A stretch of DNA of 64,000 nucleotides, from the sequence record MK962758; one strand, written 5' to 3'. The translations under genes and the position numbers were made by a program. The DNA comes from Shigella phage JK55. This document shows, in pieces, positions 19,651 through 37,574 of the stretch. The notes below the pieces were generated by a model. That model saw only the letters and a list, made by a program, of their open reading frames with translations. It was not told where the DNA came from and did no database searches. Each line of letters opens with the position of its first letter. Positions within the stretch are counted from its first letter, which is position 1.

Positions 19651-20039
19651 TAACGAATAACCTGTGTGACTTGAATTGCTTCAGTTACAGACAAGTCCCC
19701 TACTTTCTCTTCTTTGACAAAGGTGAAGGTAAGCTCAACAGGCTCTTGCTCTTCTTGCTCAACTGGAACACCATTAAGCTCATCAAAGATTGATTGAGTT
19801 GTCCAGTCTTCTCCACCATCTGGATAGTGGATTGCGTAAAGAGGGAACTCGATGCCAAACCAACCAAATACAGGGCAACCATCTTCATCATCACGCACTC
19901 TGCGAAGGGTGCTACCTGAGTCTGTAAAACGAAGACTAATATTGCCGTTACACTCAAAAATTATTGCATCAGCGAGACCAATATCTTCTCGACCATCATG
20001 AGCAAAAGTGTCAACTTTTACTTGAATCTCTTTATTCAT
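19650..20039 (-). CDS. hypothetical protein
   Basis: ORF 129 aa. Confidence 0.5.
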   Translation of the reverse strand: MNKEIQVKVDTFAHDGREDIGLADAIIFECNGNISLRFTDSGSTLRRVRDDEDGCPVFGWFGIEFPLYAIHYPDGGEDWTTQSIFDELNGVPVEQEEQEPVELTFTFVKEEKVGDLSVTEAIQVTQVIR

Positions 20040-20430
20040 AAAAACCTCTCTCTGCTAGTTTTATCTTTTCTCTTAGAGTTTCGCAACGCTCAATGTGGTA
20101 GTTTGCTTCACGCTCATGGGTTGCTAACTCTCTTTCAAGGATGGATTTATAATAACCTGCTAATTGCTCTTCTGTCAATGGGTGTTCAGAAATAATATCT
20201 AATCCACTTTCTCCAAGAGGGTTGAACCGACCATACTCGTCCACTTTGTATATCTCGAACCTGAAAAACCCATTTTTAGCATGAGTAATAGGTGATAGCT
20301 CAGCTAACTCTACAGTGAACTTTGTACAAACCTTATCACCACTTACTACAATCTGGCTGCCAATGATTCTCACCATTGAGCCATTGCGAGTGTACTTAAA
20401 AGTTCCAAAGTCACTAGCCCAAAGTTTCAT
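20032..20430 (-). CDS. hypothetical protein
   Basis: ORF 132 aa. Confidence 0.5.
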   Translation of the reverse strand: MKLWASDFGTFKYTRNGSMVRIIGSQIVVSGDKVCTKFTVELAELSPITHAKNGFFRFEIYKVDEYGRFNPLGESGLDIISEHPLTEEQLAGYYKSILERELATHEREANYHIERCETLREKIKLAERGFYE

Positions 20431-20481
20431 AGCTTTCTCCTTAGAAAATAAAAAAGGCTCCCGAAGGAGCCTATGAAGATA

Positions 20482-20946
20482 TTACTTTGGATATAGATTG
20501 TCAAGATAAATGTCAGCTTCCATTCTACGTCTGTTTTTCAGTCCGTTTGAAGTGACCTTCTGACCTTTGACTGTAACCTTGTTCCACCACTGCATAGCTT
20601 CTGCACAACCTACCTTATTACCAGCATTGTGTCGCTTGATAAATGTAGAATCCTGCATAGCTGTGATACCGATGTTGTATGTTTCACTTACAAGTGCATC
20701 GAACTCGTTCTGAGAAGTTGGAACCTTGATAGCTTTATTCACTGCTGCAACGAACTTCTCAACATCTGCAAGAAGATACCGTTCAGCTTGTTCAGCAGTA
20801 ATTTTCATACCCATCTTAACAGGTTTTCCGTCAATACGGATTGTACCATACCCGATTGTTGGGATTCCGGCAGAGTCTTCGTAAGCCTCTAACTTCAGAC
20901 CTTCAAAGAACTTAATAGCTTCTAAACCTTTTCTTGAGAGTTGCAT
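20482..20946 (-). CDS. endolysin, T4-lysozyme-like (glycoside hydrolase family 24)
   Basis: N-terminal GLEAIKFFEGLKLEAYEDSAGIPTIGYGT matches the catalytic E...D...T region of GH24 phage lysozymes. Confidence 0.75.
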   Translation of the reverse strand: MQLSRKGLEAIKFFEGLKLEAYEDSAGIPTIGYGTIRIDGKPVKMGMKITAEQAERYLLADVEKFVAAVNKAIKVPTSQNEFDALVSETYNIGITAMQDSTFIKRHNAGNKVGCAEAMQWWNKVTVKGQKVTSNGLKNRRRMEADIYLDNLYPK

Positions 20947-21830
20947 TATGCCTCCCCTGCTGGGTTAACTGTAACTGTTGCCGCATTAGATGTTACAGAG
21001 CCACCTGCGCCAGTCACTACACAGGTGTAGCTTCCTGCATCAGCAGCGGTTGCACCTTCTTTGGTGTAAGTTGCAGCAGTTGCGTCTGGGATGACTTCCT
21101 CATCTTTCTTCCACTGATAACCTGTTGCACCTGTTGCCACAACATTCAACGTTAAGGTCTCACCTTCATTGATTTCTTGATTGGTTGGCTGTTGAGTGAT
21201 GACAGGAAGTGCATTCACAGTCACTGTTGCTGCATCTGAGGTAACACTTGTTCCACCCTCTCCAGATACAACACAAGTGTATGAACCAGCATCAGAAGGT
21301 GCTACTGACTGTTTTGTGTAAGTTGCAGAATTGGCACTAGGGATGTCCTCACCATCCTTCTTCCACTGATATCCAGTGGCGTTAGTTGCTAGAATGCTTA
21401 GAGTAAGTGTGCCACCCTCATTGACTGTTTGACCTGTCGGTTGCTGAGTAATTGCTGGTGGCTTAATAGCATCCTTCAACTTAGCATTCAACATTGAGAA
21501 CGGCTTAACTCTTGCCAACCATTCACAGTAAATTGTGTCAACATCTTTACCATTGATGATTGCATACTGCAAATCCATGAAGAAATCAGCAGTTCTCATC
21601 TGTGCACCAACACTGTAAAGCAATTCATCACTAAATGGAACTTTGTAGTCTGGTTTGTAGTCAAACTTCTCAACTTCTGCAATATCAGCTTCAGGCCAAT
21701 ATGAACTATAGGTAAGTGGTAAAATAGCCTCTTGATATGTTCTAAAATCATACCTCTTACCAGCCTTTACATTTGCAATGAAACCCTTCACAAACTCTTT
21801 GAAGTCTGGGTAAGTCTTTGCTTTAATCAT
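20946..21830 (-). CDS. protein with N-terminal domain paralogous to 21827..22198 and two C-terminal Ig-like repeats
   Basis: Two about 85-aa repeats each ending AGSYTCVV(S/T)G and ATVTVN (Ig-like signature); N-terminal 125 aa alignable by eye with the adjacent upstream gene product. Confidence 0.55.
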   Translation of the reverse strand: MIKAKTYPDFKEFVKGFIANVKAGKRYDFRTYQEAILPLTYSSYWPEADIAEVEKFDYKPDYKVPFSDELLYSVGAQMRTADFFMDLQYAIINGKDVDTIYCEWLARVKPFSMLNAKLKDAIKPPAITQQPTGQTVNEGGTLTLSILATNATGYQWKKDGEDIPSANSATYTKQSVAPSDAGSYTCVVSGEGGTSVTSDAATVTVNALPVITQQPTNQEINEGETLTLNVVATGATGYQWKKDEEVIPDATAATYTKEGATAADAGSYTCVVTGAGGSVTSNAATVTVNPAGEA

Positions 21831-22198
21831 TTCTTTTTAGCCTCTAAATGTGCGTTTAGTTTAAAATAACCTTTGTGATGCGGAGATACATCACCAACAA
21901 CAATACCTTTAACCTTATAGCCTTTACCAATTACATACTGGATATCCATAAGGAATCTTCCAAGTCCAACAATATGGAACATTGGATATAATAGGTTCTC
22001 AGAATCTGGAATATTGATTTCAGGTTTGTAGGTACGCTGTTCGATTGTTGGTGTAATATCTTCTTCAGGCCATTTGCTGAGTCTCCATGTCAAAGGTGTT
22101 GGGATAACATCATTAAGGTTGTACCTTTCACCATTTTGCACGGAATTGATATAGGATTGTAGGAAGCAATAAAAGTCTTTTGCACTCTTAGCTTTCAT
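21827..22198 (-). CDS. hypothetical protein, paralog of N-terminal domain of 20946..21830
   Basis: Shared pattern K..DF..F...I..V..G.RY........P......W.E.DI......YKP... Confidence 0.5.
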   Translation of the reverse strand: MKAKSAKDFYCFLQSYINSVQNGERYNLNDVIPTPLTWRLSKWPEEDITPTIEQRTYKPEINIPDSENLLYPMFHIVGLGRFLMDIQYVIGKGYKVKGIVVGDVSPHHKGYFKLNAHLEAKKK

Positions 22199-22245
22199 TA
22201 AATATCCTTATAAATAGTTAAAGGGGCATCAGCCCCTATTCACAC

Positions 22246-22836
22246 TTAAGCTTTGGTCTTAAGTAGGTTCTTAAGTTTTTTAAGATTCATACTCTCATCA
22301 AACTTAAAACCAAATCCATTGACATAATCAATGAACTCGGATTTCTTACTAAGTGACAATGCGTAACTCATATCAAAGTTCTTACTTGTTTCTGCGTCTG
22401 GACTAGAGTTCACATCAAATGAAATTTCTGTAGGCTCTTGCTTACTTTTTCTCATATTATCAACCAACAAACATGTATAGTTTGCTGGATAGAAGTTTAC
22501 ACTACCATCAACGTAGCTGTATTTATTATTATGGATAAGGTTGGAAAATACCTTAAGGAATGTTTCTGAGTCGTGGCAAACAAGTTTGAATTGGCTGCTC
22601 TCTCCAAGCGCAACTAATGAGTACGGACTTTCACTATCAAAGTCATAATTTGGATTCGATGCCGTCACTGTTACACGCATCAAGTTATTAGCAATAGTCT
22701 TCTGTTTAAAAGAATTTTGAACATAGTGAAGACCCCTCTCACACTGATTGACTAGCTCTTTAAGTAGGTCATTTGCATATGGTGAGTTAATTGATACAGA
22801 GCCATCACTATTGTAATTAAAACTTACTGTTAACAT
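22246..22836 (-). CDS. hypothetical protein
   Basis: ORF 196 aa. Confidence 0.5.
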   Translation of the reverse strand: MLTVSFNYNSDGSVSINSPYANDLLKELVNQCERGLHYVQNSFKQKTIANNLMRVTVTASNPNYDFDSESPYSLVALGESSQFKLVCHDSETFLKVFSNLIHNNKYSYVDGSVNFYPANYTCLLVDNMRKSKQEPTEISFDVNSSPDAETSKNFDMSYALSLSKKSEFIDYVNGFGFKFDESMNLKKLKNLLKTKA

Positions 22837-23455: not shown

Positions 23456-23827
23456 ATGAAAAACAGAACAAACAAAGGCCAGTTTAAAAAAGGCCAGTCT
23501 GGAAACCCATCTGGAAGACCGAAAGGCTCACGTAACAAAAGCTCTCTCGTAAAAGCTCAACTGACCATTGATAATTCTGCTGAGTTTGCTGCAAAGTTGT
23601 TTGAGGCGATTGTTACAAGGGATGCTGCTAAGCTTGCAGAGTTCGGTTTGACGACTGACGATGTAAACCTGAAGTCGATGATGGAAGCTGGTAAAACTAT
23701 CATGACCCACTCAGCAGGTGAGATGAAAGCGATTGCAGCAGACACTAAGAAAACCCCTGATAATGGTGGTCAAACCCAGACAGATAACAAACCAACGTTT
23801 TCTGCTGTAGCGACTCTCAAAAAATAA
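23456..23827 (+). CDS. hypothetical protein with N-terminal basic GNPSGRPKGSRN motif (DNA/RNA-binding-like)
   Basis: Motif KGQSGNPSGRPKGSRNK near N-terminus; TTGACA boxes upstream at 23305-23322. Confidence 0.45.
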   Translation: MKNRTNKGQFKKGQSGNPSGRPKGSRNKSSLVKAQLTIDNSAEFAAKLFEAIVTRDAAKLAEFGLTTDDVNLKSMMEAGKTIMTHSAGEMKAIAADTKKTPDNGGQTQTDNKPTFSAVATLKK

Positions 23828-23908: not shown

Positions 23909-25324
23909 ATGAGCGAATTATTTAAACATGCGCACCTTCATGCAGGTCGAACTGAAAATGGTGCTGTAAACCATACTTCATCAATGTCTGCTCTAGTAAA
24001 CTTTTACAAAGCTGCTGGTTCAAGCCGTAGCAATGTAGAAATCTTACCAGACCTGTTCTACAAAGCTTTGCGTGAGGATGTTGATGTTGCAGTTCGTATT
24101 TTACTGCATATGCGAGATGTACGAGAAGGTATGGGTGAGCGTAAAGCCTTCAGAACTGTTTTGCTTCAAGCAATTGAAGACAAAGTTTTAGAGCCTACAC
24201 AGGTTCTTCGCATTATGGATAAGGTTGCAGAACTTGGTCGTTTTGATGACTTCAAAATCTTCGTAGGTACTCGTTTCGAGACGGATGCCTTCAAACATTT
24301 AGAGGCAGCATTACTAGACCCTGCAACAGCAGGTTTGGCAGCTAAGTGGTTACCACGAGTCAAACCACGTCATAAGCAGTTTGTAAAACGTTTCTGCAAG
24401 TTTGCCAACTTGAGTGAGAAAGAGTACCGCACACTGTTATCTGCACTGTCTGATACGGTTGAGCAAAAAATCTCTGCTAATGAGTTTGGTAAGATTGACT
24501 ACAGCAAGATTCCTTCACTCGCTGCTGCACGTTACCAAAAGCTCTTTAACCGTAAAGATGGAGAACGTTACAAAGCTTACATCGAATCACTCTCAAAGGG
24601 TGAGGCTAAGATTAACGCTGGTGCTGTTTATCCATACGATGTGATTAAGTCTATCAAGCATGGTAATGCAGATGTTGCCAATGAGCAGTGGAAAGCACTA
24701 CCAAACTGGATGGCAGAAGGTGAGAACATCTTGTGTATGACTGATGTTTCAAGCTCAATGTCTTGGGTGAATCTTGGTTCAATCACTGCTCTGGATATTG
24801 GTGTATCACTTGCCTTGTATGTAGCAGAACGCAATACAGGTTGCTTTAAGAATGAGTTAATGGTTTATTCAACAAACCCTCACTTCATCGAACTGAGTGG
24901 TGATTTACGAAACCGTCATCGTCAGGTGATGCGACACGTTGAATATGGCTCAACTAACTTACAAGCAGCTTTTGACCGCATTCTTGAAACAGGTAAAAGA
25001 AACAACTTGACTCAGAAAGATATGCCAAGTAAGCTTATCATCTTCTCCGATATGGAGTTCAATCAGGTTGATGGAGCTAACGGTCGTACAAACTTTGAAG
25101 CAATTCAGAGTAAGTACAAAAAAGCTGGATATGAGATGCCACAACTGGTATTCTGGTACTTAGCAAACCGTAATGGTACTTGCGAAGTGTCTGTTAAGGA
25201 TAACGGTGTAGCAATGGTATCTGGTTTCTCTCCAGCCACTTTAAAAGCTTTGCTTGGTGGTGAGAAGTTTGACCCAATCAGTGTAATGCTCAAAGCAGTA
25301 ATGATTGACCGTTACATCTGGTAA
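23909..25324 (+). CDS. vWA-domain protein with MIDAS motif (DUF2828-like or Ro60/TROVE-like; unresolved)
   Basis: MIDAS-type DxSxS motif (CMTDVSSSMS) at about residue 280; N-terminal TENGA motif; lies directly upstream of the tRNA array. Confidence 0.5.
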   Translation: MSELFKHAHLHAGRTENGAVNHTSSMSALVNFYKAAGSSRSNVEILPDLFYKALREDVDVAVRILLHMRDVREGMGERKAFRTVLLQAIEDKVLEPTQVLRIMDKVAELGRFDDFKIFVGTRFETDAFKHLEAALLDPATAGLAAKWLPRVKPRHKQFVKRFCKFANLSEKEYRTLLSALSDTVEQKISANEFGKIDYSKIPSLAAARYQKLFNRKDGERYKAYIESLSKGEAKINAGAVYPYDVIKSIKHGNADVANEQWKALPNWMAEGENILCMTDVSSSMSWVNLGSITALDIGVSLALYVAERNTGCFKNELMVYSTNPHFIELSGDLRNRHRQVMRHVEYGSTNLQAAFDRILETGKRNNLTQKDMPSKLIIFSDMEFNQVDGANGRTNFEAIQSKYKKAGYEMPQLVFWYLANRNGTCEVSVKDNGVAMVSGFSPATLKALLGGEKFDPISVMLKAVMIDRYIW

Positions 25325-25489: not shown

Positions 25490-25566
25490 CTCTGTTTAGC
25501 TCAGCTTGGTAGAGCGTTCCGTTTGGGGCGGTAAGGCCGGAGGTTCAAGTCCTCCAACAGAGACCA
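25490..25566 (+). tRNA. tRNA-Pro (anticodon TGG)
   Basis: Hand-folded cloverleaf: 7-bp acceptor CTCTGTT/AACAGAG, D-arm GCTC..GAGC, anticodon loop TTTGGGG, T-arm GGAGGTTCAAGTCCTCC, CCA encoded. Confidence 0.7.
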
Positions 25567-25573
25567 AATTAAT

Positions 25574-25651
25574 GTTCCAGTAGACAAAATGGTATAGTCA
25601 CCACTCTTTCAAAGTGGATATCTGAGGGTTCAAATCCCTTCTGGAACGCCA
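25574..25651 (+). tRNA. tRNA-Glu (anticodon TTC)
   Basis: Acceptor GTTCCAG/CTGGAAC, anticodon stem CCACT/AGTGG with loop CTTTCAA, T-arm GAGGGTTCAAATCCCTT, CCA encoded. Confidence 0.6.
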
Positions 25652-25738
25652 GTTTTGACAGAAGACCAATTACAGCAAACTGAATCTACTCATCTGACAC
25701 GAAATCGGACAAAGAAGATATTTGGTCTGGTCATTAAG
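25652..25738 (+). ncRNA. repeated structured element, copy a (ACAGAAGACCAATTACAGCAA ... TTGGTCTGG)
   Basis: Shares 5' motif and covarying closing stem with copies b, c, d. Confidence 0.4.
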
Positions 25739-25741
25739 AAT

Positions 25742-25818
25742 TGCGGGTATAGAGAAAGGGCGTCTCACATGTCTCATTAGCATGGTATCGGCAGGTTCGA
25801 CTCCTGCACCCGCCTCCA
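25742..25818 (+). tRNA. tRNA-Met or Ile2 (anticodon CAT)
   Basis: Anticodon loop CTCATTA, T-arm GCAGGTTCGACTCCTGC, acceptor about 6/7 bp, CCA encoded. Confidence 0.55.
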
Positions 25819-25819
25819 A

Positions 25820-25892
25820 ATTTACAGAAGACCGTTTACAGCAATACTTATTAAATTTTTAGCGGAAAAATTGAAAGATGCGGTCTGGTAAT
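25820..25892 (+). ncRNA. repeated structured element, copy b (ACAGAAGACCGTTTACAGCAA ... CGGTCTGG)
   Basis: As above; closing stem AGACCG/CGGTCT. Confidence 0.4.
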
Positions 25893-25901
25893 ACTAAACA
25901 T

Positions 25902-25975
25902 GGTTAGGAAGCACATAAGGTATGTGCGGTCGCCTGTTAAGCGAATGGCACAGGGTTCGAATCCCTGACTAACCG
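25902..25975 (+). tRNA. tRNA-Asn (anticodon GTT)
   Basis: D-arm GCAC..GTGC, anticodon loop CTGTTAA, T-arm CAGGGTTCGAATCCCTG; no CCA encoded. Confidence 0.55.
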
Positions 25976-25986
25976 CAAAATTTAAA

Positions 25987-26075
25987 TGTGTCGTTATCCC
26001 GTAGATGGTAGCGGTGGGGACTGTAAATCCCTTGTCATTGAGACTCGGTAGGTTCGACTCCTACACGGCACACCA
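25987..26075 (+). tRNA. tRNA-Tyr (anticodon GTA), long variable arm
   Basis: Anticodon loop CTGTAAA, about 15-nt variable arm, T-arm GTAGGTTCGACTCCTAC, CCA encoded. Confidence 0.6.
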
Positions 26076-26080
26076 ATAAA

Positions 26081-26158
26081 GGTTATGTAGTTTAATTTGG
26101 TTAAAATACTCCCCTGTCACGGGAGATGATGAGGGTTCAAATCCCTTCGTAACCGCCA
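26081..26158 (+). tRNA. tRNA-Asp (anticodon GTC)
   Basis: Anticodon stem CTCCC/GGGAG with loop CTGTCAC, T-arm GAGGGTTCAAATCCCTT, CCA encoded. Confidence 0.6.
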
Positions 26159-26216
26159 ATTTTGAGAGGGCTATTTAGCCCCTCCCTTAAAGAGTTCTTA
26201 CGAGTATTCTTTAAAG

Positions 26217-26296
26217 GAGTAGAAGACCAAATACAGCAAGAATGTATGATATTTTCAAGCCAATTCAATTTTGAAAAAATTTAAAACTTGGTCTGG
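26217..26296 (+). ncRNA. repeated structured element, copy c (AGAAGACCAAATACAGCAA ... TTGGTCTGG)
   Basis: As above; closing stem AGACCAA/TTGGTCT. Confidence 0.4.
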
Positions 26297-26306
26297 CTCA
26301 ACAAAT

Positions 26307-26450
26307 TTACAGAAGACCGTTTACAGCAAAACTTAAACAATCTATTTCTCGGTAAAGAAAAGGCGAAGGTTCGATTCCTTCACTCGGCAGAGGTCGAGTT
26401 GGTGTAATGGTAGCACTTAAGATGATAAACAACGGTCTGGTAATTATCTT
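26307..26450 (+). ncRNA. repeated structured element, copy d, expanded; contains tRNA-like T-arm (GAAGGTTCGATTCCTTC) and D-arm-like segment
   Basis: Closing stem AGACCGTT/AACGGTCT; internal T-loop motif and TGGTGTAATGGTAGCAC D-arm-like segment, but no complete cloverleaf found. Confidence 0.35.
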
Positions 26451-26585
26451 TGTAGATAAGTTATTAAGCTTACCTGTGAGTATGCGACCACAAAGGGTGA
26501 AAGGGTAAATTCTAGATTTAAACCCAAAAAGTCACATCGCTACAGACCTTAAGCAAGTCTGGGTAGCTTATCTACAAAGATAATT
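26441..26585 (+). repeat. 19-bp perfect inverted repeat (TAATTATCTTTGTAGATAAG / CTTATCTACAAAGATAATT) enclosing 105 bp
   Basis: Arms at 26441-26460 and 26566-26584; candidate RNase III-type processing stem or miniature inverted-repeat element. Confidence 0.6.
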
Positions 26586-26589
26586 TAAT

Positions 26590-26665
26590 GGAAGTGTAGC
26601 AGAATGGTGATGCGGCAGACTTTTAATCTGACAGGCGATGGGTTCGAATCCCTCCACTTCTACCA
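26590..26665 (+). tRNA. tRNA-Lys (anticodon TTT)
   Basis: Acceptor GGAAGTG/CACTTCT, anticodon loop CTTTTAA, T-loop TTCGAAT with weak T-stem, CCA encoded. Confidence 0.5.
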
Positions 26666-26669
26666 AAAT

Positions 26670-26746
26670 GGTTCAGTCGCAGATAAGGTAATGCAAGGGT
26701 CTCATAAGCCCTATGAATGTGGGTTCGAATCCCATCTGAACCTCCA
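26670..26746 (+). tRNA. tRNA-Met or Ile2 (anticodon CAT), second copy
   Basis: Acceptor GGTTCAG/CTGAACC, anticodon stem AGGGT/GCCCT loop CTCATAA, T-arm GTGGGTTCGAATCCCAT, CCA encoded. Confidence 0.6.
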
Positions 26747-26748
26747 AT

Positions 26749-26823
26749 TGTGGGTTAGCATAAATGGTAATGCAAACGGCTGATAACCGTTAGAAGAGGG
26801 TTCGATACCCTCACCTACAACCA
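26749..26823 (+). tRNA. tRNA-Ile (anticodon GAT)
   Basis: Anticodon stem AACGG/CCGTT loop CTGATAA, T-arm GAGGGTTCGATACCCTC, CCA encoded. Confidence 0.6.
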
Positions 26824-26838
26824 AATTCAATAAAGTTG

Positions 26839-26867
26839 TTGACATTGAGATGTGACTACTTTATAGT
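26839..26867 (+). promoter_or_regulatory. sigma70-like promoter inside tRNA cluster (TTGACA-17-TATAGT)
   Basis: -35 26839-26844, -10 26862-26867; about 200 nt of non-tRNA sequence follows before the next tRNA. Confidence 0.55.
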
Positions 26868-27070
26868 ACCCTTAGTTTTCGTTGCGTAGCGTCTATTTTG
26901 CAAATTTAAAATAAATGCAAACGACAATGTTTTTCTGGCAGTAGCTTGATAGGCTAAACACCAGTGAGGTCTTCCAATCCCTCATCAAAGAATTTGGCGT
27001 ACTCGCCCACGGTATGATTAATAAGGTGGGCATCTTTAAGGGCTTTCTAAGAGAGTCTTTAAAGATTAAT

Positions 27071-27147
27071 GCACCCTTAGTTCAACTGGACAGAGCAAAT
27101 GACTTCTAATCATTGAGTTACAGGTTCGAATCCTGTAGGGTGCGCCA
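27071..27147 (+). tRNA. tRNA-Arg (anticodon TCT)
   Basis: Acceptor GCACCCT/AGGGTGC, anticodon stem AATGA/TCATT loop CTTCTAA, T-arm ACAGGTTCGAATCCTGT, CCA encoded. Confidence 0.65.
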
Positions 27148-27289
27148 ATTAGTTAGCAGATTACTTAGACGACCTAAGCGGGTCTTCCTGTAGGGAGGTG
27201 GTCTGTATCTCATGTTTTCCAGAACATGTAAATAATCTGAGAAGGGGCTTTACAGTGTTGAGATAATACGGTAAGTTTCGAATTATAGT

Positions 27290-27372
27290 ATGGGACGATG
27301 TTAAGACTCTAAGGCATGAGCAACGGCCTCCAAAACCGTTTCAAAGGGGTTCAACTCCTCCGTCCCATGCCA
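27290..27372 (+). tRNA. atypical tRNA-like gene (possible anticodon CCA in an enlarged 9-nt loop; isotype unresolved)
   Basis: Perfect acceptor ATGGGAC/GTCCCAT, T-arm AGGGGTTCAACTCCTCC, CCA encoded, but 83 nt long with about 7 extra nt between acceptor and anticodon arm; stem AACGG/CCGTT encloses CCTCCAAAA. Confidence 0.35.
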
Positions 27373-27385
27373 AAGTCTTATTAGT

Positions 27386-27473
27386 GGTAGGTAGCGGCTA
27401 ATGGTAGCCAAACTGTCTTGAAAACAGTTGCCACTGTAGAGATACGGTGAGGGTTCGACTCCTTTACTTACCG
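27386..27473 (+). tRNA. tRNA-Ser (anticodon TGA), long variable arm
   Basis: Anticodon stem ACTGT/ACAGT loop CTTGAAA, long variable arm, T-arm GAGGGTTCGACTCCTTT; no CCA encoded. Confidence 0.55.
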
Positions 27474-27730
27474 CCTAATAAGATTTAAAGCCAAGCTTCA
27501 TTCGGATGTTGCTTTGGTATCCCTCGTGTATTGTCGTACACACTAATAAAGCACCTAGTAGGTGTCACGGAGAAGAGATAATATCAAGCTCTCCAAAGGT
27601 TCTAGTCACCGGATTAAACAAGACTATGCAAAGACCTTTTTAGGTCTTTTTAGAGGGCTTCTAAGGTTATTACAGCTTGTTGTGGAACCTTGTTGCTTAG
27701 GTTCTTAGAAGTTCTCTAAAAAGGTTTAAT

Positions 27731-27808
27731 GGGAGATTGACGGTAATTGGTAAACCTATCTCGCTTAGAACGAGATGTTTGAGGGTTCGAATCCCTTGTC
27801 TCCTACCA
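27731..27808 (+). tRNA. tRNA with anticodon TAG (Leu by code) but short variable arm
   Basis: Anticodon stem TCTCG/CGAGA loop CTTAGAA, T-arm GAGGGTTCGAATCCCTT, CCA encoded; class-I length. Confidence 0.45.
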
Positions 27809-27815
27809 AATTAAT

Positions 27816-27891
27816 GCAGGTGTAGCAAAATGGTTATGCGGCTGACTCTTAATCAGTAAGACGATGGGTTCAATTCCCTCCACCTGTACCA
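27816..27891 (+). tRNA. tRNA-Lys (anticodon CTT)
   Basis: Acceptor GCAGGTG/CACCTGT, anticodon stem GCTGA/TCAGT loop CTCTTAA, T-loop TTCAATT, CCA encoded; paralog of tRNA-Lys(TTT). Confidence 0.5.
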
Positions 27892-27897
27892 AACAAT

Positions 27898-27973
27898 GGG
27901 GTCATAGTTTATATGGTTAAAATTCGAGTTTTGCAAACTTGGGAACTGAGTTCAATTCTCAGTGACTCCACCA
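27898..27973 (+). tRNA. tRNA-Ala (anticodon TGC)
   Basis: Anticodon stem CGAGT/ACTTG loop TTTGCAA, T-arm CTGAGTTCAATTCTCAG, CCA encoded. Confidence 0.5.
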
Positions 27974-27979
27974 ATTAGT

Positions 27980-28054
27980 GCATCCATAGTTTAAACGGGA
28001 AAATTACAGTCTTCCAAACTGAGGTTGAGGGTTCGATTCCCTCTGGATGCTCCA
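27980..28054 (+). tRNA. tRNA-Gly (anticodon TCC)
   Basis: Perfect acceptor GCATCCA/TGGATGC, anticodon loop CTTCCAA, T-arm GAGGGTTCGATTCCCTC, CCA encoded. Confidence 0.6.
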
Positions 28055-28060
28055 AACAAT

Positions 28061-28137
28061 GCTGCTTTCGTATAATTGGCTATTACACATCCCTTGTAAG
28101 GATGGAAATGCAGGTTCGAGTCCTGTGAGCAGCACCA
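28061..28137 (+). tRNA. tRNA-Thr (anticodon TGT)
   Basis: Anticodon stem CATCC/GGATG loop CTTGTAA, T-arm GCAGGTTCGAGTCCTGT, CCA encoded. Confidence 0.65.
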
Positions 28138-28140
28138 ATT

Positions 28141-28232
28141 CAGAGGTCAAGTGAAAGACCGCTGGTGTCAACTGAAGACCGTAACAAATTCCACGGAGTT
28201 GAGTTAGCGGCACAACTTCAGACCTCTTTCAC
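28141..28232 (+). ncRNA. structured non-tRNA element between tRNA-Thr and tRNA-Val (nested inverted repeats)
   Basis: AGAGGTC...GACCTCT outer inverted repeat, CTGAAG...CTTCAG inner repeat, contains the GAAGACCGT motif shared with copies a-d; no T-loop motif. Confidence 0.35.
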
Positions 28233-28307
28233 ACTCGCTTAGTTTATATGGTAAAACATCACCCTTACAAGATGAAGAAAAAGGTTCAAGTCCTTTAGTG
28301 AGTACCA
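28233..28307 (+). tRNA. tRNA-Val (anticodon TAC)
   Basis: Acceptor ACTCGCT/AGTGAGT, anticodon loop CTTACAA, T-arm AAGGTTCAAGTCCTT, CCA encoded. Confidence 0.5.
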
Positions 28308-28308
28308 T

Positions 28309-28386
28309 GTTCCAGTATCCCAATTGGCAGAGGATGCAAGCTCAAACCTTGTATTAGTGACGGTTCGAATCCGTCTTGGAACACCA
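28309..28386 (+). tRNA. tRNA with anticodon CAA (Leu by code) but short variable arm
   Basis: Acceptor GTTCCAG/TTGGAAC, anticodon stem GCAAG/CTTGT loop CTCAAAC, T-arm GACGGTTCGAATCCGTC, CCA encoded. Confidence 0.45.
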
Positions 28387-28405
28387 ATTTTAAGAGGCTA
28401 TTTAG

Positions 28406-28963
28406 ATGAGATATTTGAAGTATGCTTCATGGATTTTCTTAGCTTTACTAGAACCATTTGCAGCAACCCTAGCAGTCATCTTAGCACCTTTCGTAGTTCC
28501 ATTCTACAGTGAGAAGAAAGGGCATCTACCTTTTGGATTCAGATGGATGGAGACCTATGACAACCCGATTGATGGTGATAAAGGCCACGTTGAGAGATGG
28601 GCTAAGATTAGAAAGATTGGCAAGCTCGGTGTTTATATGCAGAGAGTTGGATGGCTCTGGAGAAACAAAGCTTATAACTTCTCTTACCATGTATTAGGAA
28701 GAGATGTAAAAGATGTTACTAAGTGGAAAGGTAATATCAACGTAAGTTCTGACCCTGAAGATAATCAGACAGGTTATCTCCTAATGTGGAACAACAATGC
28801 TTGGGGATTATTCGCTTTTATTCCGTCAATTAAAATCTTTGGTAAACAGTTTTACTGGAGAATTTATGTTGGATGGAAACTAAAAAGTGTTGTCCCAGAA
28901 GAAAGAGCATTCTCAAGGGAAAGAGTTATGTTGGCATTCTTTATTCATCCACTGAGAAAGTAA
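28406..28963 (+). CDS. hypothetical membrane protein embedded in tRNA cluster
   Basis: N-terminal hydrophobic segments (IFLALLEPFAATLAVILAPFVVPF); AAGAGG RBS 9 nt upstream. Confidence 0.55.
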   Translation: MRYLKYASWIFLALLEPFAATLAVILAPFVVPFYSEKKGHLPFGFRWMETYDNPIDGDKGHVERWAKIRKIGKLGVYMQRVGWLWRNKAYNFSYHVLGRDVKDVTKWKGNINVSSDPEDNQTGYLLMWNNNAWGLFAFIPSIKIFGKQFYWRIYVGWKLKSVVPEERAFSRERVMLAFFIHPLRK

Positions 28964-28971
28964 AGATTTAA

Positions 28972-29047
28972 AGGGGATTAGTTTACAAGGTTAAAACCTC
29001 GGTCTTTGAAATCGAAGAAGTTGGTTCAATTCCAACATCCCCCGCCA
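28972..29047 (+). tRNA. tRNA-Gln (anticodon TTG)
   Basis: Anticodon stem TCGGT/ATCGA loop CTTTGAA, T-arm GTTGGTTCAATTCCAAC, CCA encoded. Confidence 0.55.
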
Positions 29048-29049
29048 AT

Positions 29050-29128
29050 GCTCCATTACTCCAATTGGCAGAGAGGCCAGACTTAAAATCTGTGTTATGT
29101 ATCGGTTCGAATCCGATATGGAGTACCA
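29050..29128 (+). tRNA. tRNA with anticodon TAA (Leu by code) but short variable arm
   Basis: Acceptor GCTCCAT/ATGGAGT, anticodon loop CTTAAAA, T-arm ATCGGTTCGAATCCGAT, CCA encoded; D-arm paralogous to the CAA tRNA. Confidence 0.45.
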
Positions 29129-29133
29129 AATTT

Positions 29134-29209
29134 AGCGGTATAGCATAACTGGCAATGCAGCAGTCTCTGAAGCTGTCTTATTAAGGTTCAAATCCTTATG
29201 CCGCTGCCA
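29134..29209 (+). tRNA. tRNA-Gln (anticodon CTG)
   Basis: Acceptor AGCGGTA/TGCCGCT, anticodon loop CTCTGAA, T-arm TAAGGTTCAAATCCTTA, CCA encoded. Confidence 0.5.
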
Positions 29210-29240
29210 CTTCTAAGGGTTCTTACGAGAGTCCTTAAAT

Positions 29241-29316
29241 GTGGCCTTATCATAAATGGTAATGACCCATGCTGTGAACATGGTCTATACGGGTTCAAAT
29301 CCCGTAGGTCACCCCA
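29241..29316 (+). tRNA. tRNA-His (anticodon GTG)
   Basis: Anticodon stem CCATG/CATGG loop CTGTGAA, T-arm ACGGGTTCAAATCCCGT, CCA encoded. Confidence 0.65.
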
Positions 29317-29322
29317 ATTTAT

Positions 29323-29398
29323 AGTCCAAGTAGCTTATATGGTTAAAGCGCGTGTCTGAAAAACATGAGAAGAGGGTTCGAATCCCACTGGACTACCA
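29323..29398 (+). tRNA. tRNA-Phe (anticodon GAA)
   Basis: Anticodon stem CGTGT/ACATG loop CTGAAAA, T-loop TTCGAAT, CCA encoded. Confidence 0.55.
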
Positions 29399-29416
29399 AT
29401 TTCAAAGGTGCTTAAT

Positions 29417-30149
29417 GAAAGAGATGACAGAACAAGGTAAGGAGATTTTTAATCTCTTAAAAACCGGTAAAGGGTTTTCTAACCCACTTATTACTGGTGC
29501 AGCAGTTCTCGGTGGAACCGTAGCTGCTTCTACATCACTTGTAAGCTCTATTAGTTCTGTAACAGACCCTACAATGCAGGAGAAACTTGTTGCTGCTGGA
29601 CTTACAACAGTCCTTCTAAACAGCTTTACAACAAGCCTTACAAGCACTACAGCAACTACTAAAACTCTGACAGACTACGGTCAAAAGTCTATTGATGAGT
29701 TTTCATCACGTATGCAGGTAGCAAAGGGGTATTCCAATGTTATGGGTGCAGCAGGAGAGCAAGTTGGTTGTACACCATTCAGTGGTATCATGGGTGTTGC
29801 TACAGAGTATGGTCAAAAAGCTATTAACATGATGAACAGTACACTAGATAGTGTTAATGGTGTGTTAAGTGACTTACAAGATGCTATTGATAAGGGTCTT
29901 GATACTGTTTCTGATTTAGCTAATCAGGCTGTTAGTAAGATTAATGAAGGTATTTCAAAGATTACAGCTTATGCAGATGAAGTTGTGCAGATGATTGAAG
30001 AAGAAGCTTCCCTTATTGCAGAGTACCTTAAAACGAATATCAATGGGTTCTTAGCAGGTATCTTACCAGACTGGTTTGATGATGCCTGTAAAACTGGTGT
30101 GATTGACACTATTGCAACACCAGAAATGAAGAGCGCATTACAGAAATAA
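29417..30149 (+). CDS. hypothetical protein (Ser/Thr/Ala-rich N-terminal region) embedded in tRNA cluster
   Basis: Start moved to ATG 29417 (AAAGGTG upstream) because the track start 29352 lies inside tRNA-Phe. Confidence 0.5.
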
Positions 30150-30150
30150 T

Positions 30151-30243
30151 GGAAGATTAACCCTAAAAGGTAAGGGAGCAGTTTGCTAAACTGCCAGTAG
30201 CTGAGAAATCGGTGTACCAGTTCAAGTCTGGTATCTTCCTCCA
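30151..30243 (+). tRNA. tRNA-Ser (anticodon GCT), long variable arm
   Basis: Perfect acceptor GGAAGAT/ATCTTCC, anticodon stem GCAGT/ACTGC loop TTGCTAA, about 20-nt variable arm, T-arm ACCAGTTCAAGTCTGGT, CCA encoded. Confidence 0.7.
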
Positions 30244-30247
30244 ATTT

Positions 30248-30323
30248 GAATCCGTGACAGAAATGGATATGTGCCTGTCTGCAAAACAGGTTTATAAGGG
30301 TTCGAGTCCCTTCGGATTCTCCA
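30248..30323 (+). tRNA. tRNA-Cys (anticodon GCA)
   Basis: Perfect acceptor GAATCCG/CGGATTC, anticodon stem CCTGT/ACAGG loop CTGCAAA, T-arm AAGGGTTCGAGTCCCTT, CCA encoded. Confidence 0.7.
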
Positions 30324-36464: not shown

Positions 36465-37574
36465 ATGTTGACTAATTCTGAAAAAAGCAGATTTTTCCTT
36501 GCTGACCTGACTGGTGAAGTCCAGTCTATCCCTAATACTTATGGGTATATTTCCAACTTAGGTCTGTTCCGTTCAGCACCAATCACCCAAACTACTTTCC
36601 TTATGGACTTGACTGATTGGGATGTTAGCTTGCTTGATGCGGTAGACCGTGATAGCCGTAAAGCAGAGACTAGCGCACCTGAGCGTGTTCGTCAAATCAG
36701 CTTCCCAATGATGTACTTCAAAGAAGTTGAAAGCATTACTCCTGATGAGATTCAGGGTGTACGTCAGCCAGGCACTGCAAACGAACTGACTACTGAAGCT
36801 GTAGTACGTGCTAAGAAGCTGATGAAGATTCGTACCAAGTTCGATATTACTCGTGAGTTCTTGTTTATGCAAGCTCTGAAGGGTAAAGTTGTTGATGCTC
36901 GTGGTACTCTGTATGCTGACCTGTACAAGCAGTTCGACGTTGAGAAGAAGACTATTTACTTCGACCTTGACAACCCTAATGCTGACATCGATGCTGCTAT
37001 TGAAGAACTGCGTATGCACATGGAAGACGAAGCTAAGACTGGCACTGTAATCAACGGTGAAGAAATTCACGTAGTTGTTGACCGTGTATTCTTCAGCAAA
37101 CTGGTTAAGCACCCTAAGATTCGTGACGCTTATCTTGCACAGCAGACTCCACTGGCTTGGCAACAGATTACTGGTTCTCTGAGAACTGGTGGTGCTGACG
37201 GCGTTCAGGCTCATATGAACACTTTCTACTACGGTGGTGTTAAGTTTGTCCAGTACAACGGTAAGTTCAAAGACAAGCGTGGTAAGGTTCATACTCTGGT
37301 TAGTATTGATGGTGTTACTCAGGATGGAACTGTAGGTGTAGGTCATGCTTTCCCTAACGTTTCTATGCTGGGTGAAGCAAACAACATCTTCGAAGTGGCA
37401 TATGGCCCATGTCCTAAGATGGGTTATGCAAATACTCTGGGTCAGGAACTGTACGTATTCGAATACGAAAAAGACCGTGACGAAGGTATTGACTTTGAAG
37501 CTCACTCTTACATGCTGCCATACTGCACACGTCCTCAGTTGCTGGTAGATGTTCGTTCTGACGCTCAAGAATAA
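36465..37574 (+). CDS. major capsid protein
   Basis: 369-aa ORF after protease/decoration genes; strongly biased codon usage; lambda E-like order. Confidence 0.65.
   Translation: MLTNSEKSRFFLADLTGEVQSIPNTYGYISNLGLFRSAPITQTTFLMDLTDWDVSLLDAVDRDSRKAETSAPERVRQISFPMMYFKEVESITPDEIQGVRQPGTANELTTEAVVRAKKLMKIRTKFDITREFLFMQALKGKVVDARGTLYADLYKQFDVEKKTIYFDLDNPNADIDAAIEELRMHMEDEAKTGTVINGEEIHVVVDRVFFSKLVKHPKIRDAYLAQQTPLAWQQITGSLRTGGADGVQAHMNTFYYGGVKFVQYNGKFKDKRGKVHTLVSIDGVTQDGTVGVGHAFPNVSMLGEANNIFEVAYGPCPKMGYANTLGQELYVFEYEKDRDEGIDFEAHSYMLPYCTRPQLLVDVRSDAQE

Follow-up and report, generated by a model that had tools for sequence, protein, structure and literature searches.

The window, a 64,000-nucleotide stretch of Shigella phage JK55 (MK962758), belongs to a Felix O1-like myophage of the genus Felixounavirus. 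Three closely packed genes on its minus strand encode, in order of translation, a protein of 123 aa (21827..22198), a protein of 294 aa (20946..21830) and a T4-lysozyme-type endolysin (20482..20946; PF00959, E = 2e-40; phrog_7 endolysin), exactly as listed in a first-pass annotation made from the letters alone. That annotation had set the start of the 294-aa gene against the stop of the endolysin gene. The two genes do abut, but the reverse arrangement holds: because all three genes lie on the minus strand, it is the stop of the 294-aa gene that overlaps the endolysin start (TAATG). The stop of the 123-aa gene likewise overlaps the start of the 294-aa gene (ATGA), and the endolysin ribosome-binding site, GGGGAGG, sits within the 3' end of the 294-aa gene.

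Direct reading of the sequence places a Shine-Dalgarno-like AAGGA (22205..22209, minus strand) 6 nt from the ATG of the 123-aa gene. Past the endolysin, a terminator scan identified an intrinsic terminator (AGGCTCC-TTCG-GGAGCCT followed by a T-run; 20455..20472, minus strand) at the operon end. A short GC hairpin (GGGGC-TGAT-GCCCC, then TTT; 22220..22236, minus strand) separates the 123-aa gene from a 196-aa gene and is retained in the aligned sequences of phages REP11 and Z31; the terminator scan did not accept it, and it is at best a weak terminator or attenuator. Since a scan for sigma-70 promoters returned counts equal to chance expectation, no promoter is claimed. The 294-aa protein and the endolysin would be expressed from a single minus-strand operon.

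The 196-aa protein (22246..22836, minus strand; phrog_4034) is the first conserved member of a syntenic block, and Erwinia phage phiEa104 has a homolog of it at the corresponding place (E = 5e-21). At all loci compared the block reads 196-aa gene, 123-aa gene (where present), 294-aa gene and lysozyme, and the last two follow one another in Felix O1, Bas63, Sf14, Moogle, mistaenkt, phiEa104 and LPML1. The neighbourhood of Ig-like domains and lysis genes had been thought unusual; it is not, because this order is conserved across the subfamily Ounavirinae. The locus lies about 15 kb from the major capsid protein (MCP) gene and the structural module, as it does in Bas63 (genome record MZ501086.1, found by similarity).

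The 294-aa protein is an ortholog of two solved capsid decoration proteins, Hex-Dec of Bas63 (PDB 9NCF chain S) and gp20 of Sf14 (PDB 9C2D chain S). Searched against the PDB with phmmer, it aligned collinearly from residue 1 with 9ncf_S (E = 5e-249) and with 9c2d_S (E = 3e-164), and phrog_3995 matched it over its full length. Residues 1-122 (21465..21830, minus strand) form the capsid-binding domain (CapBD) and include the anchor residues Arg79 and Arg107; this domain shares 97% identity with the part modelled in 9ncf_S and 88% with the CapBD of Sf14 gp20, and its AF2 model superposed on the solved chains with TM scores of 0.80 (9ncf_S) and 0.79 (9c2d_S). The two Ig-like repeats reported in the first-pass annotation are borne out by Pfam (Ig_3, 9.4e-23; Ig_2, 1.3e-19; I-set, 4.6e-16; two stretches each). 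Domain 1 covers residues 124-207 (21210..21461, minus strand; Ig_3, Ig_2 and I-set; DAGSYTCVVSG) and domain 2 residues 208-290 (20961..21209, minus strand; Ig_2 and I-set at 209-288). The repeats share 70% identity in protein and 66% in DNA, both carrying the motif DAGSYTCVV[ST]G.

How such a protein sits on the head is known from the two relatives. The Sf14 and Bas63 decoration proteins are Hoc-like monomers whose CapBD, of about 120 aa, plugs the hexamer centres of a T=9 head; the occupied sites are the 60 pentamer-proximal hexamers, from which the Ig string projects outward (PMC11821841, PMC12609058). Arg79 and Arg107 serve as anchors, with Asp221 of the capsid protein as their partner, and Hex-Dec is kept off the true 3-fold hexamers because the geometry of Asp221 differs there (PMC11821841). 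Both arginines are present in JK55 and were invariant in the nine Hex-Decs compared. The JK55 MCP (36465..37574, plus strand), which is the docking partner, matched 9ncf_A (E = 2e-243) and 9c2d_A (E = 4e-234) by phmmer, has Asp at aligned residue 221 (within KIRDAYL) and is nearly invariant. In JK55, each of the 60 pentamer-proximal hexamers would hold one Hex-Dec monomer, its N-terminal CapBD docked in the depression at the hexamer centre and its Arg79 and Arg107 salt-bridged to Asp221 from three capsid subunits. The two flexible Ig domains would point outward from the head, where they probably provide weak adhesion to hosts or other surfaces. For JK55 itself we infer docking, site selectivity and virion presence from the 88-97% domain identity and the conservation of both contact partners.

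The proposal that the gene encodes a virion decoration protein is therefore upheld, cryo-EM and virion mass spectrometry having placed the orthologs of Bas63 and Sf14 on the particle (PMC12609058, PMC11821841). We regard the Hex-Dec identity and mechanism of the 294-aa gene as secure, and this protein, the main object of the study, as already explained by the structures solved in relatives. The Bas63 ortholog, bas63_0124, adjoins the endolysin gene and was mildly needed on host S17-1 only (PhageMaP).

Relatives of the protein, and PHROG 3995 itself, are nevertheless named 'tail protein', and the adjacency and translational coupling of the genes to the endolysin could suggest either tail proteins or helpers that bind the cell wall on its behalf, the latter also having been put forward in the first-pass annotation. 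We give these readings of the pair hardly any credence. Cryo-EM puts the ortholog on the capsid, which refutes them for Hex-Dec (PDB 9NCF, 9C2D); tail PHROG matches beyond its own family cover the Ig region only; and the fold of the N-terminal domain matches capsid-binding domains and no cell-wall-binding domain. The Bas63 authors also stated outright that the tail annotation of Hex-Dec is wrong (PMC12609058), and its name in the databases is an inherited error.

The 123-aa gene had been described as a paralog of the N-terminal domain alone, a description that pairwise alignment supports: BLASTP against JK55 Hex-Dec gave 38% identity over 101 aa (E = 1e-16), and the gene product also matched residues 3-117 of 9ncf_S (E = 6e-12). 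It spans the entire N-terminal domain of Hex-Dec and nothing beyond, ending after the CapBD, with no Ig-like display domain found and no Pfam match. It is a full-length member of PHROG 4463 (E = 2e-79), and each of the two proteins matches the PHROG family of the other. Structure prediction (AF2) likewise returned the CapBD fold for both, with the same order of secondary-structure elements. In the PDB, Foldseek matched the paralog model only to 9c2d_S and 9ncf_S (TM 0.62-0.67, probability 1.00; next hit E > 1), values to be read against a control ceiling of TM 0.80, obtained with the Hex-Dec CapBD model and the solved chains. A fold search of BFVD matched Ounavirinae proteins only, and an exhaustive profile search recovered the CapBD fold in just 12 clusters among 1.84 billion representatives, all of them from Ounavirinae-type loci. 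Paralogy of the 123-aa gene with the CapBD, and with no other part of Hex-Dec, is thus genuine and far beyond chance.

Orthologs of the paralog are Felix O1 ORF37, bas63_0125 (84% identical), Sf14 gp21 and VpaE1 ORF40c. A 40-aa UniProt entry for Felix O1, which hints at a broken gene, is a legacy annotation artefact, as RefSeq shows an intact 123-aa ORF37. We found no mention of the relationship between the paralog and the Hex-Dec CapBD in the literature searched, and neither cryo-EM paper (PMC12609058, PMC11821841) mentions the paralog, though Bas63 and Sf14 both encode one. The gene is conserved and its role appears undescribed.

Of 252 phage records, 232 have the paralog intact, at 73-99% identity; up to 19 genomes are without it. 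A divergent 87-kb metagenomic phage also carries the gene, with an intact copy at 45% identity. It is absent from the Kolesnikvirus and LPML1 loci, where Hex-Dec homologs are present (phiEa104, LPML1); it is therefore the later duplication, a lineage-specific tandem duplicate of the capsid-binding domain only. The duplication would have taken place after the Felixounavirus/Mooglevirus/Suspvirus lineage split from the Erwinia-type Ounavirinae. At each of nine loci the end of its reading frame runs 1-8 nt into the start of Hex-Dec, and its dN/dS is 0.125, compared with 0.091 for the endolysin; translation of the two genes is coupled, and the paralog is under purifying selection. Decay as the general state of the gene was rejected because of this dN/dS, the ORF intact across three genera and the intact 45%-identical metagenomic copy; in the REP11/Z31 lineage it has truly decayed, to a pseudogene. 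That the paralog is a functional, diverged CapBD duplicate is highly probable.

The overlap of the two genes raised the possibility of a programmed -1 frameshift at GCT AAA AAG AAA TGA, giving a CapBD-CapBD-Ig-Ig fusion. The Hex-Dec frame in JK55 is indeed -1 with respect to that of the paralog, with an A AAG-type slippery run three codons before the stop. The A-rich run is not conserved, however (Mooglevirus has GCTAAGAAATGA), and the frame relation is +1 in Suspvirus mistaenkt, the overlap varying from 1 to 8 nt. The solved Hex-Dec chains, moreover, begin at residue 1 of the downstream ORF. As neither the slippery run nor the frame relation is conserved, the fusion was rejected as exceedingly improbable.

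Conservation within the paralog peaks at residues 66-95, which correspond to the contact helix of Hex-Dec, and 31 conserved positions are specific to the paralog. Thirteen positions are conserved in both proteins but differ between them, among them the anchor Arg79, which is Gly in all nine paralogs compared. Arg107 is replaced by His or Gln in eight of the nine, the most divergent paralog having Arg there. The net charge varies from +4 to -3, and the paralog evolves some 3-4 times faster than the Hex-Dec CapBD. The paralog thus keeps the core of the fold with conserved, different residues at the capsid-contact positions. It may still act on the capsomer centre with altered specificity: at a different site, in a different maturation state or at low occupancy. 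Against such a capsid-directed role stand the loss of both anchors, the variable charge, the fast evolution beside a nearly invariant MCP, the decay or absence of the gene in some genomes, the lack of a consistent knockout defect in Bas63 and the findings on virions set out below.

The first-pass annotation had suggested an assembly partner, and an obligate chaperone for the folding of Hex-Dec or its loading onto the head could be envisaged, since the paralog lies upstream, is co-translated with Hex-Dec through the ATGA overlap and shares with it a domain that makes mimicry or heterodimerisation conceivable. On an assembly partner as such the evidence tells neither way, but an obligate role is very unlikely because Hex-Dec homologs assemble without the paralog in other Ounavirinae and in phages that have lost it. 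REP11 keeps an intact 293-aa Hex-Dec beside the decayed paralog, and in phiEa104 and LPML1 a Hex-Dec homolog occurs without any paralog. The knockout profiles of Bas63 genes 125 and 124 also differ from one another. The scores for gene 125 are noisy (for example -1.34, +1.08 and -0.75 on MG1655; PhageMaP), show no consistent defect, and may reflect insertions polar on genes 124 and 123.

Alternatively, the 20 true-threefold hexamers, or some other site unused by Hex-Dec, could be capped by the paralog, acting as a minor second decoration protein. It has the fold of a proven hexamer-centre plug, is co-expressed with Hex-Dec, and differs in a conserved manner exactly at the Asp-contacting positions, Hex-Dec being excluded from the 3-fold hexamers (PMC11821841). 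A small Ig-less monomer on a symmetry axis would be smeared by icosahedral averaging, which could explain why it had been missed. Against this, the Bas63 paper found no density at other hexamers (PMC12609058), and the decoration distribution in Sf14, for which there is also an asymmetric map, agrees with Bas63 (PMC11821841). Although Sf14 gp21 and bas63_0125 are both encoded, the paralog is modelled in neither 9NCF nor 9C2D. Sf14 gp21 is not in Table 1 of the Sf14 paper, which gives gene products with their MS-detection status (PMC11821841), and VpaE1 ORF40c was left 'hypothetical' in an annotation table (not an MS table) in which virion-assigned proteins had been relabelled. The paralog also changes faster than a protein binding the almost invariant MCP would be expected to. 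Taken together, we consider a second decoration protein unlikely.

A related proposal, which we likewise hold to be improbable, is that the paralog acts as an antagonist or placeholder, an Ig-less mimic that occupies capsomer centres closed to Hex-Dec (procapsid hexamers ahead of expansion or the 20 true-threefold hexamers), or that titrates Hex-Dec, thereby setting the 60-site pattern and the occupancy of the Ig fibres.

Greater weight falls on neofunctionalisation, in which the paralog would bind a non-capsid target (another phage protein, Hex-Dec itself or a host factor) and act only inside the cell. The loss of both capsid anchors with the gain of the 31 paralog-specific conserved positions, the absence from virion structures and proteome lists, and the faster evolution with a charge that varies between genera, as expected for a varying partner, all point this way. 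Conversely, the MCP hexamer is the only known ligand of the very rare CapBD fold, the tight translational coupling to Hex-Dec is conserved, and positive evidence for an alternative partner is lacking; searches of the defence (PADLOC), NCBIfam and Pfam libraries gave no match, and hence no indication of a defence or anti-defence role. Neofunctionalisation is accordingly possible but doubtful, and that the paralog is still capsid-directed is a notion we hold tentatively, with slightly more favour.

The reading to which we commit is that the paralog is an Ig-less accessory protein of the CapBD fold, dispensable and not an ordered, stoichiometric component of the virion. The explanation of the locus as a whole, Hex-Dec together with a functional, Ig-less CapBD paralog of altered specificity, is likely.

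Felix O1-like phages are widely used for the biocontrol and typing of Salmonella and E. coli, and the practical value of the analysis lies in the correction of an annotation, the label 'tail protein' being wrong. Being non-essential, with 60 defined sites and room for one to four Ig domains, Hex-Dec also lends itself naturally to use as a display scaffold. Should the paralog modulate the sites or the timing of Hex-Dec binding, it would bear on the engineering of capsid display in these phages and on how T=9 heads come to be decorated site-selectively; as no more than a diverged accessory gene, it would be of minor interest. Were the antagonist or placeholder proposal true, this would be, to our knowledge, the first case in which a phage adjusts the display on its surface by means of a truncated decoration-protein paralog.

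A search for related Ig-domain capsid decoration proteins, which the first-pass annotation had recommended, led to Bas63 Hex-Dec and Sf14 gp20 and, through the Ig domain only, to pb10 of T5. Like Hex-Dec, pb10 has an N-terminal capsid binder and a C-terminal Ig domain and binds at hexamer centres. The second Ig domain of JK55 Hex-Dec matched that of pb10 in the PDB (5lxk_A, 6.6e-13; 8zvi_a, 1e-12; phmmer), and the likeness is confined to this region (JK55 residues 216-290, pb10 residues 81-159), the N-terminal binding domain of pb10 giving no sequence or fold match to the CapBD.

T4 Hoc, for which adhesion or environment sensing has been proposed (PMC12609058, PMC11821841, PMC10385173), resembles Hex-Dec as a non-essential monomer at hexamer centres that combines a small capsid-binding domain with an Ig string. 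The Bas63 authors described the CapBD as larger than the binding domain of Hoc, topologically distinct and pseudo-C2 symmetric (PMC12609058). The domain order is also reversed, the capsid-binding domain of Hoc being C-terminal, after the Ig domains, and that of Hex-Dec N-terminal. 'Hoc-like' PHROG matches to the JK55 protein are limited to residues 120-292, the Ig region; no Hoc chain was found among the PDB fold matches of the Hex-Dec CapBD or paralog models, and fold and profile searches found no link between the CapBD fold and the binding domains of pb10 or Hoc. Hoc is an analogue of Hex-Dec and not a member of its family. We know of no paralog of Hoc that consists of the capsid-binding domain alone.

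The Hex-Decs of Bas63 and Sf14 are the same system as that of JK55, with the same gene place directly upstream of the endolysin, the same Arg79 and Arg107 and the same Asp221 in the MCP. The sole difference is the number of Ig domains, which ranges from one to four within the genus: two in JK55, as in Felix O1 and Moogle, compared with four in Bas63 and three in Sf14.

A 3-kb stretch around the Ig-domain gene matched 249 phage records (top identity 96.6%), nearly all from Felixounavirus or close relatives with Escherichia, Salmonella, Shigella and Citrobacter hosts, and the phage in the window is a Felix O1-like myophage. Both ORFs of the first-pass annotation were confirmed at exactly the coordinates it gave: a 294-aa gene with two Ig domains (20946..21830, minus strand), hereafter Hex-Dec after its Bas63 ortholog, and a 123-aa gene corresponding to the N-terminal domain only (21827..22198, minus strand), hereafter the paralog. 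A T4-lysozyme-type endolysin of 154 aa (20482..20946, minus strand; PF00959, 2e-40) follows, with a strong intrinsic terminator after it (20455..20472). The start of the Ig gene had been said to abut the endolysin stop; the relation is the reverse, with the Ig-gene stop overlapping the endolysin start (TAATG), and the paralog stop overlaps the Hex-Dec start (ATGA). Taken with the terminator, these overlaps indicate that paralog, Hex-Dec and endolysin end one operon and are translationally coupled.

Next to the paralog lies the gene for a 196-aa protein (22246..22836, minus strand; phrog_4034, without a Pfam hit) that is syntenic with Hex-Dec and the lysozyme subfamily-wide, and whose Bas63 counterpart, gene 126, has mildly negative fitness scores in a genome-wide knockout screen. 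The order 196-aa gene, paralog (where present), Hex-Dec, lysozyme was found in every locus examined, namely in the Felixounavirus phages ASO1A, EC6, BPS17W1, LNA1, Felix O1 and Bas63, the Mooglevirus phages Sf14 and Moogle, Suspvirus mistaenkt and an 87-kb metagenomic relative. The block minus the paralog occurs in Erwinia phage phiEa104 (Kolesnikvirus) and in an Ounavirinae record named Listeria phage LPML1; direct tests of the flanks in these remote phages gave homologs of the 196-aa protein (E = 5e-21, 28% identity for phiEa104) and of Hex-Dec (3e-15, 4e-14). Ig domains beside lysis genes, which had been called unusual, are therefore an arrangement inherited within the subfamily, and the position of Hex-Dec beside the endolysin most simply reflects co-expression, as we infer it, rather than a lysis function. 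The records labelled "Staphylococcus phage SA1" (ACZ55588) and "Listeria phage LPML1" (L013) represent Felix O1-like or Ounavirinae genomes that carry genes of enterobacterial type (e.g. lysozyme RrrD), and their Gram-positive host labels look doubtful.

The 294-aa protein carries, as the sequence had first suggested, two Ig domains by Pfam (Ig_3 9.4e-23, Ig_2 1.3e-19, I-set 4.6e-16); the repeats share 70% identity, and DAGSYTCVV[ST]G occurs in each. The search for related Ig-domain capsid decoration proteins that the first-pass annotation proposed found two, by full-length, collinear matches in the PDB: 9NCF chain S of phage Bas63, entitled "Immunoglobulin-like domain protein" (Hex-Dec; E = 5e-249), and 9C2D chain S of Shigella phage Sf14, entitled "tail protein" gp20 (E = 3e-164). 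Two 2025 cryo-EM papers describe Hex-Dec in Bas63 (PMC12609058) and gp20 in Sf14 (PMC11821841) as a monomeric, Hoc-like decoration protein whose capsid-binding domain at the N terminus (CapBD, ∼118-122 residues) plugs the hexamer centre of the T=9 head, at only the 60 pentamer-proximal (facet-edge) hexamers, leaving the 20 true-threefold-axis hexamers unbound. In Sf14, where gp20 was detected in virions by MS, Arg79 and Arg107 anchor it to Asp221 of three capsid subunits (PMC11821841). In the window, CapBD shares 97% identity with the Bas63 chain as modelled and 88% with the Sf14 chain; both arginines are present and are invariant across nine orthologs, and Asp221 is present in the major capsid protein (MCP; 36465..37574), which differs very little from its Bas63 counterpart (E = 2e-243). 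Hex-Dec and capsid genes lie ∼15 kb apart in the window, and the papers report a decoration gene >10 kb from the structural module (PMC12609058; PMC11821841). The Bas63 authors explicitly reject the widespread "tail protein" label (PMC12609058); that label probably began with Felix O1 ORF36 (gene 12, "tail protein"), which also has the 294-aa, two-Ig form. The protein belongs to the Hex-Dec/gp20 family, every defining feature that could be tested having been found in it, and we hold with great confidence that its identity and mechanism are essentially established by orthology. The early suggestion of a virion decoration/adhesion protein was thus right for this gene, and had already been shown in the literature and the PDB for Bas63 and Sf14; the finding is known, and ordinary within the Felix O1-like group.

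For the Ig fibre, a Hoc-like part in adhesion or in sensing the environment is proposed in both papers; its domains, which number from 1 to 4 across the genus, could not be resolved because of their flexibility (PMC12609058; PMC11821841). In the Bas63 screen gene 124, verified by sequence as Hex-Dec, was dispensable on MG1655 (+0.32 to +0.41) and, with the conjugative-plasmid host S17-1, was needed to a mild degree (-0.11 to -0.23). Relatives carry 1, 2, 3 or 4 Ig repeats (210, 294, 372-377 and 460-461 aa), variation consistent with gain and loss by recombination. At the DNA level, Ig2 (21017..21209) and Ig1 (21261..21461) are 66% identical. In Shigella phage Z31 (L003, 2498..3070) what remains of Hex-Dec is a CapBD-only ORF of 134 aa and a fragment of 55 aa, alongside a decayed paralog.

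The claim of paralogy was borne out, at 38% identity over 101 residues (E = 1e-16) with reciprocal PHROG hits, and the paralog aligns with the solved Hex-Dec chain over residues 3-117 of the latter (6e-12). An AlphaFold2 model of the paralog (pLDDT 74.9) matched 9C2D_S and 9NCF_S (TM 0.62-0.67, probability 1.00), with a helix/strand order identical to that of the CapBD model; a whole-PDB search with it gave nothing beyond these two chains, the following hit having E > 1. As a control, the model of the true Hex-Dec CapBD from the same sequence set reached a TM of just 0.80 against its own solved structure, in agreement with the caution of the Sf14 authors that AlphaFold reproduces CapBD poorly (PMC11821841). 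A profile of both families searched against 1.84 billion representative proteins returned 12 clusters, those traced to a genomic locus belonging to Ounavirinae-type phages and the distant ones being fusions of CapBD with Ig or Big_2 domains and, once, with a lysine-rich tail; BFVD gave the same picture. The CapBD fold is very rare. Tail or cell-wall-binding roles for the paralog are extremely improbable. Three genera and one divergent metagenomic phage (45% identical, the adjoining CapBD 58%) carry the paralog, which is absent from Kolesnikvirus and LPML1 and is a later duplication. Assigned to PHROG 4463, a family without assigned function, the gene is real and conserved and seems not to have been described before.

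The paralog is kept by selection: 232 of 252 phage records have an intact copy at 73-99% identity, and the median dN/dS is 0.125 (range 0.07-0.21), as compared with 0.091 for the endolysin, 0.165 for Hex-Dec Ig1 and 0.037 for Hex-Dec CapBD. Orthologs include Sf14 gp21 and bas63_0125. In every one of the nine loci compared, paralog stop and Hex-Dec start overlap, by 1-8 nt; a frameshift fusion of the two proteins is barely credible and is refuted, neither slippery run nor frame being conserved. Arg79 is replaced by Gly in 9/9 paralogs and Arg107 by His or Gln in 8/9. At thirteen positions each family has its own conserved residue, and at 31 conservation is confined to the paralogs; conservation within the paralog is greatest over residues 66-95, which correspond to the contact helix of Hex-Dec, so that the contact surface looks like a specificity change rather than decay. 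Because two defining features of Hex-Dec, the Ig domains and the Arg anchors, are missing, the paralog ought not to be classed among decoration proteins.

Each of the two phages whose capsids are solved has a gene for the paralog (Sf14 gp21; bas63_0125, 84% identical), which is present in neither 9NCF nor 9C2D, is unmentioned in either paper, and is missing from the Sf14 table of gene products with MS-detection status (PMC11821841). In the VpaE1 table it is still "hypothetical", though virion-assigned proteins were relabelled. It is unlikely that the paralog is a minor decoration protein of the true-threefold hexamers, concealed by symmetry averaging; both papers report no density at the other hexamers (PMC12609058; PMC11821841). 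Knockout scores of Bas63 gene 125 were noisy, without a consistent defect, and an intact paralog is missing from up to 19 of the 252 records. REP11 and Z31 carry it as a pseudogene (start codon lost, ∼220 bp internal deletion, frameshift); the REP11 remnant (L002, 2306..2497) is the same as that of Z31, and REP11 Hex-Dec is intact. Such natural paralog-less phages with intact Hex-Dec speak against an obligate Hex-Dec chaperone, which we consider very unlikely. The paralog is dispensable and not a visible virion component; Z31 and REP11, as natural variants of the "no fibre" and "no paralog" kind, are useful for comparison.

Our tentative preference, held with less than even confidence, is for an accessory protein of CapBD fold, Ig-less but functional, that may still target the capsomer centre of the capsid protein with altered specificity, whether for another site or another maturation state, or with an occupancy that is low. 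This reading is favoured because the MCP hexamer is the sole known ligand of a rare fold, the contact region stays the most conserved part of the paralog, and the gene is locked to Hex-Dec expression; confidence is limited by the negative structural and proteomic evidence, and by evolution faster than expected for a ligand of a nearly invariant MCP. Neofunctionalisation toward a non-capsid partner is only slightly less probable.

A 132-aa protein just downstream of the endolysin terminator (20032..20430, minus strand; phrog_4266) may be lysis-related, since knockout scores of its Bas63 ortholog, gene 122, are as negative as those of the endolysin (-0.9 to -1.3). A DUF5681 protein of 123 aa (23456..23827, plus strand) corresponds to Bas63 gene 129, among the most strongly required in the screen (-1.5 to -3.5). 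A cluster of 25 tRNA genes (25490..30323, plus strand), typical of Felix O1-like phages, separates the Hex-Dec/endolysin operon from the terminase/structural module. Directly upstream of it, a 471-aa DUF2828 and DUF7788 protein (23909..25324, plus strand) goes under the name "RNA-binding protein" in Felix O1 and in Sf14; the ortholog in Bas63, gp130, has been described as Ro60-like and as countering the ppl defence system, and was moved into T7 to improve infectivity (bioRxiv 10.1101/2024.10.10.617714). A 331-aa ORF antisense within the MCP gene (36573..37568, minus strand) is almost certainly spurious.

Among known decoration systems, Hex-Dec works like T4 Hoc but is not its homolog, the domain order being reversed and the binding domain unrelated; PHROG "Hoc-like" matches cover the Ig region only. 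With T5 pb10, Hex-Dec shares the domain order and a homologous Ig domain (5lxk_A, 6.6e-13), whereas the pb10 binding domain is unrelated to CapBD.
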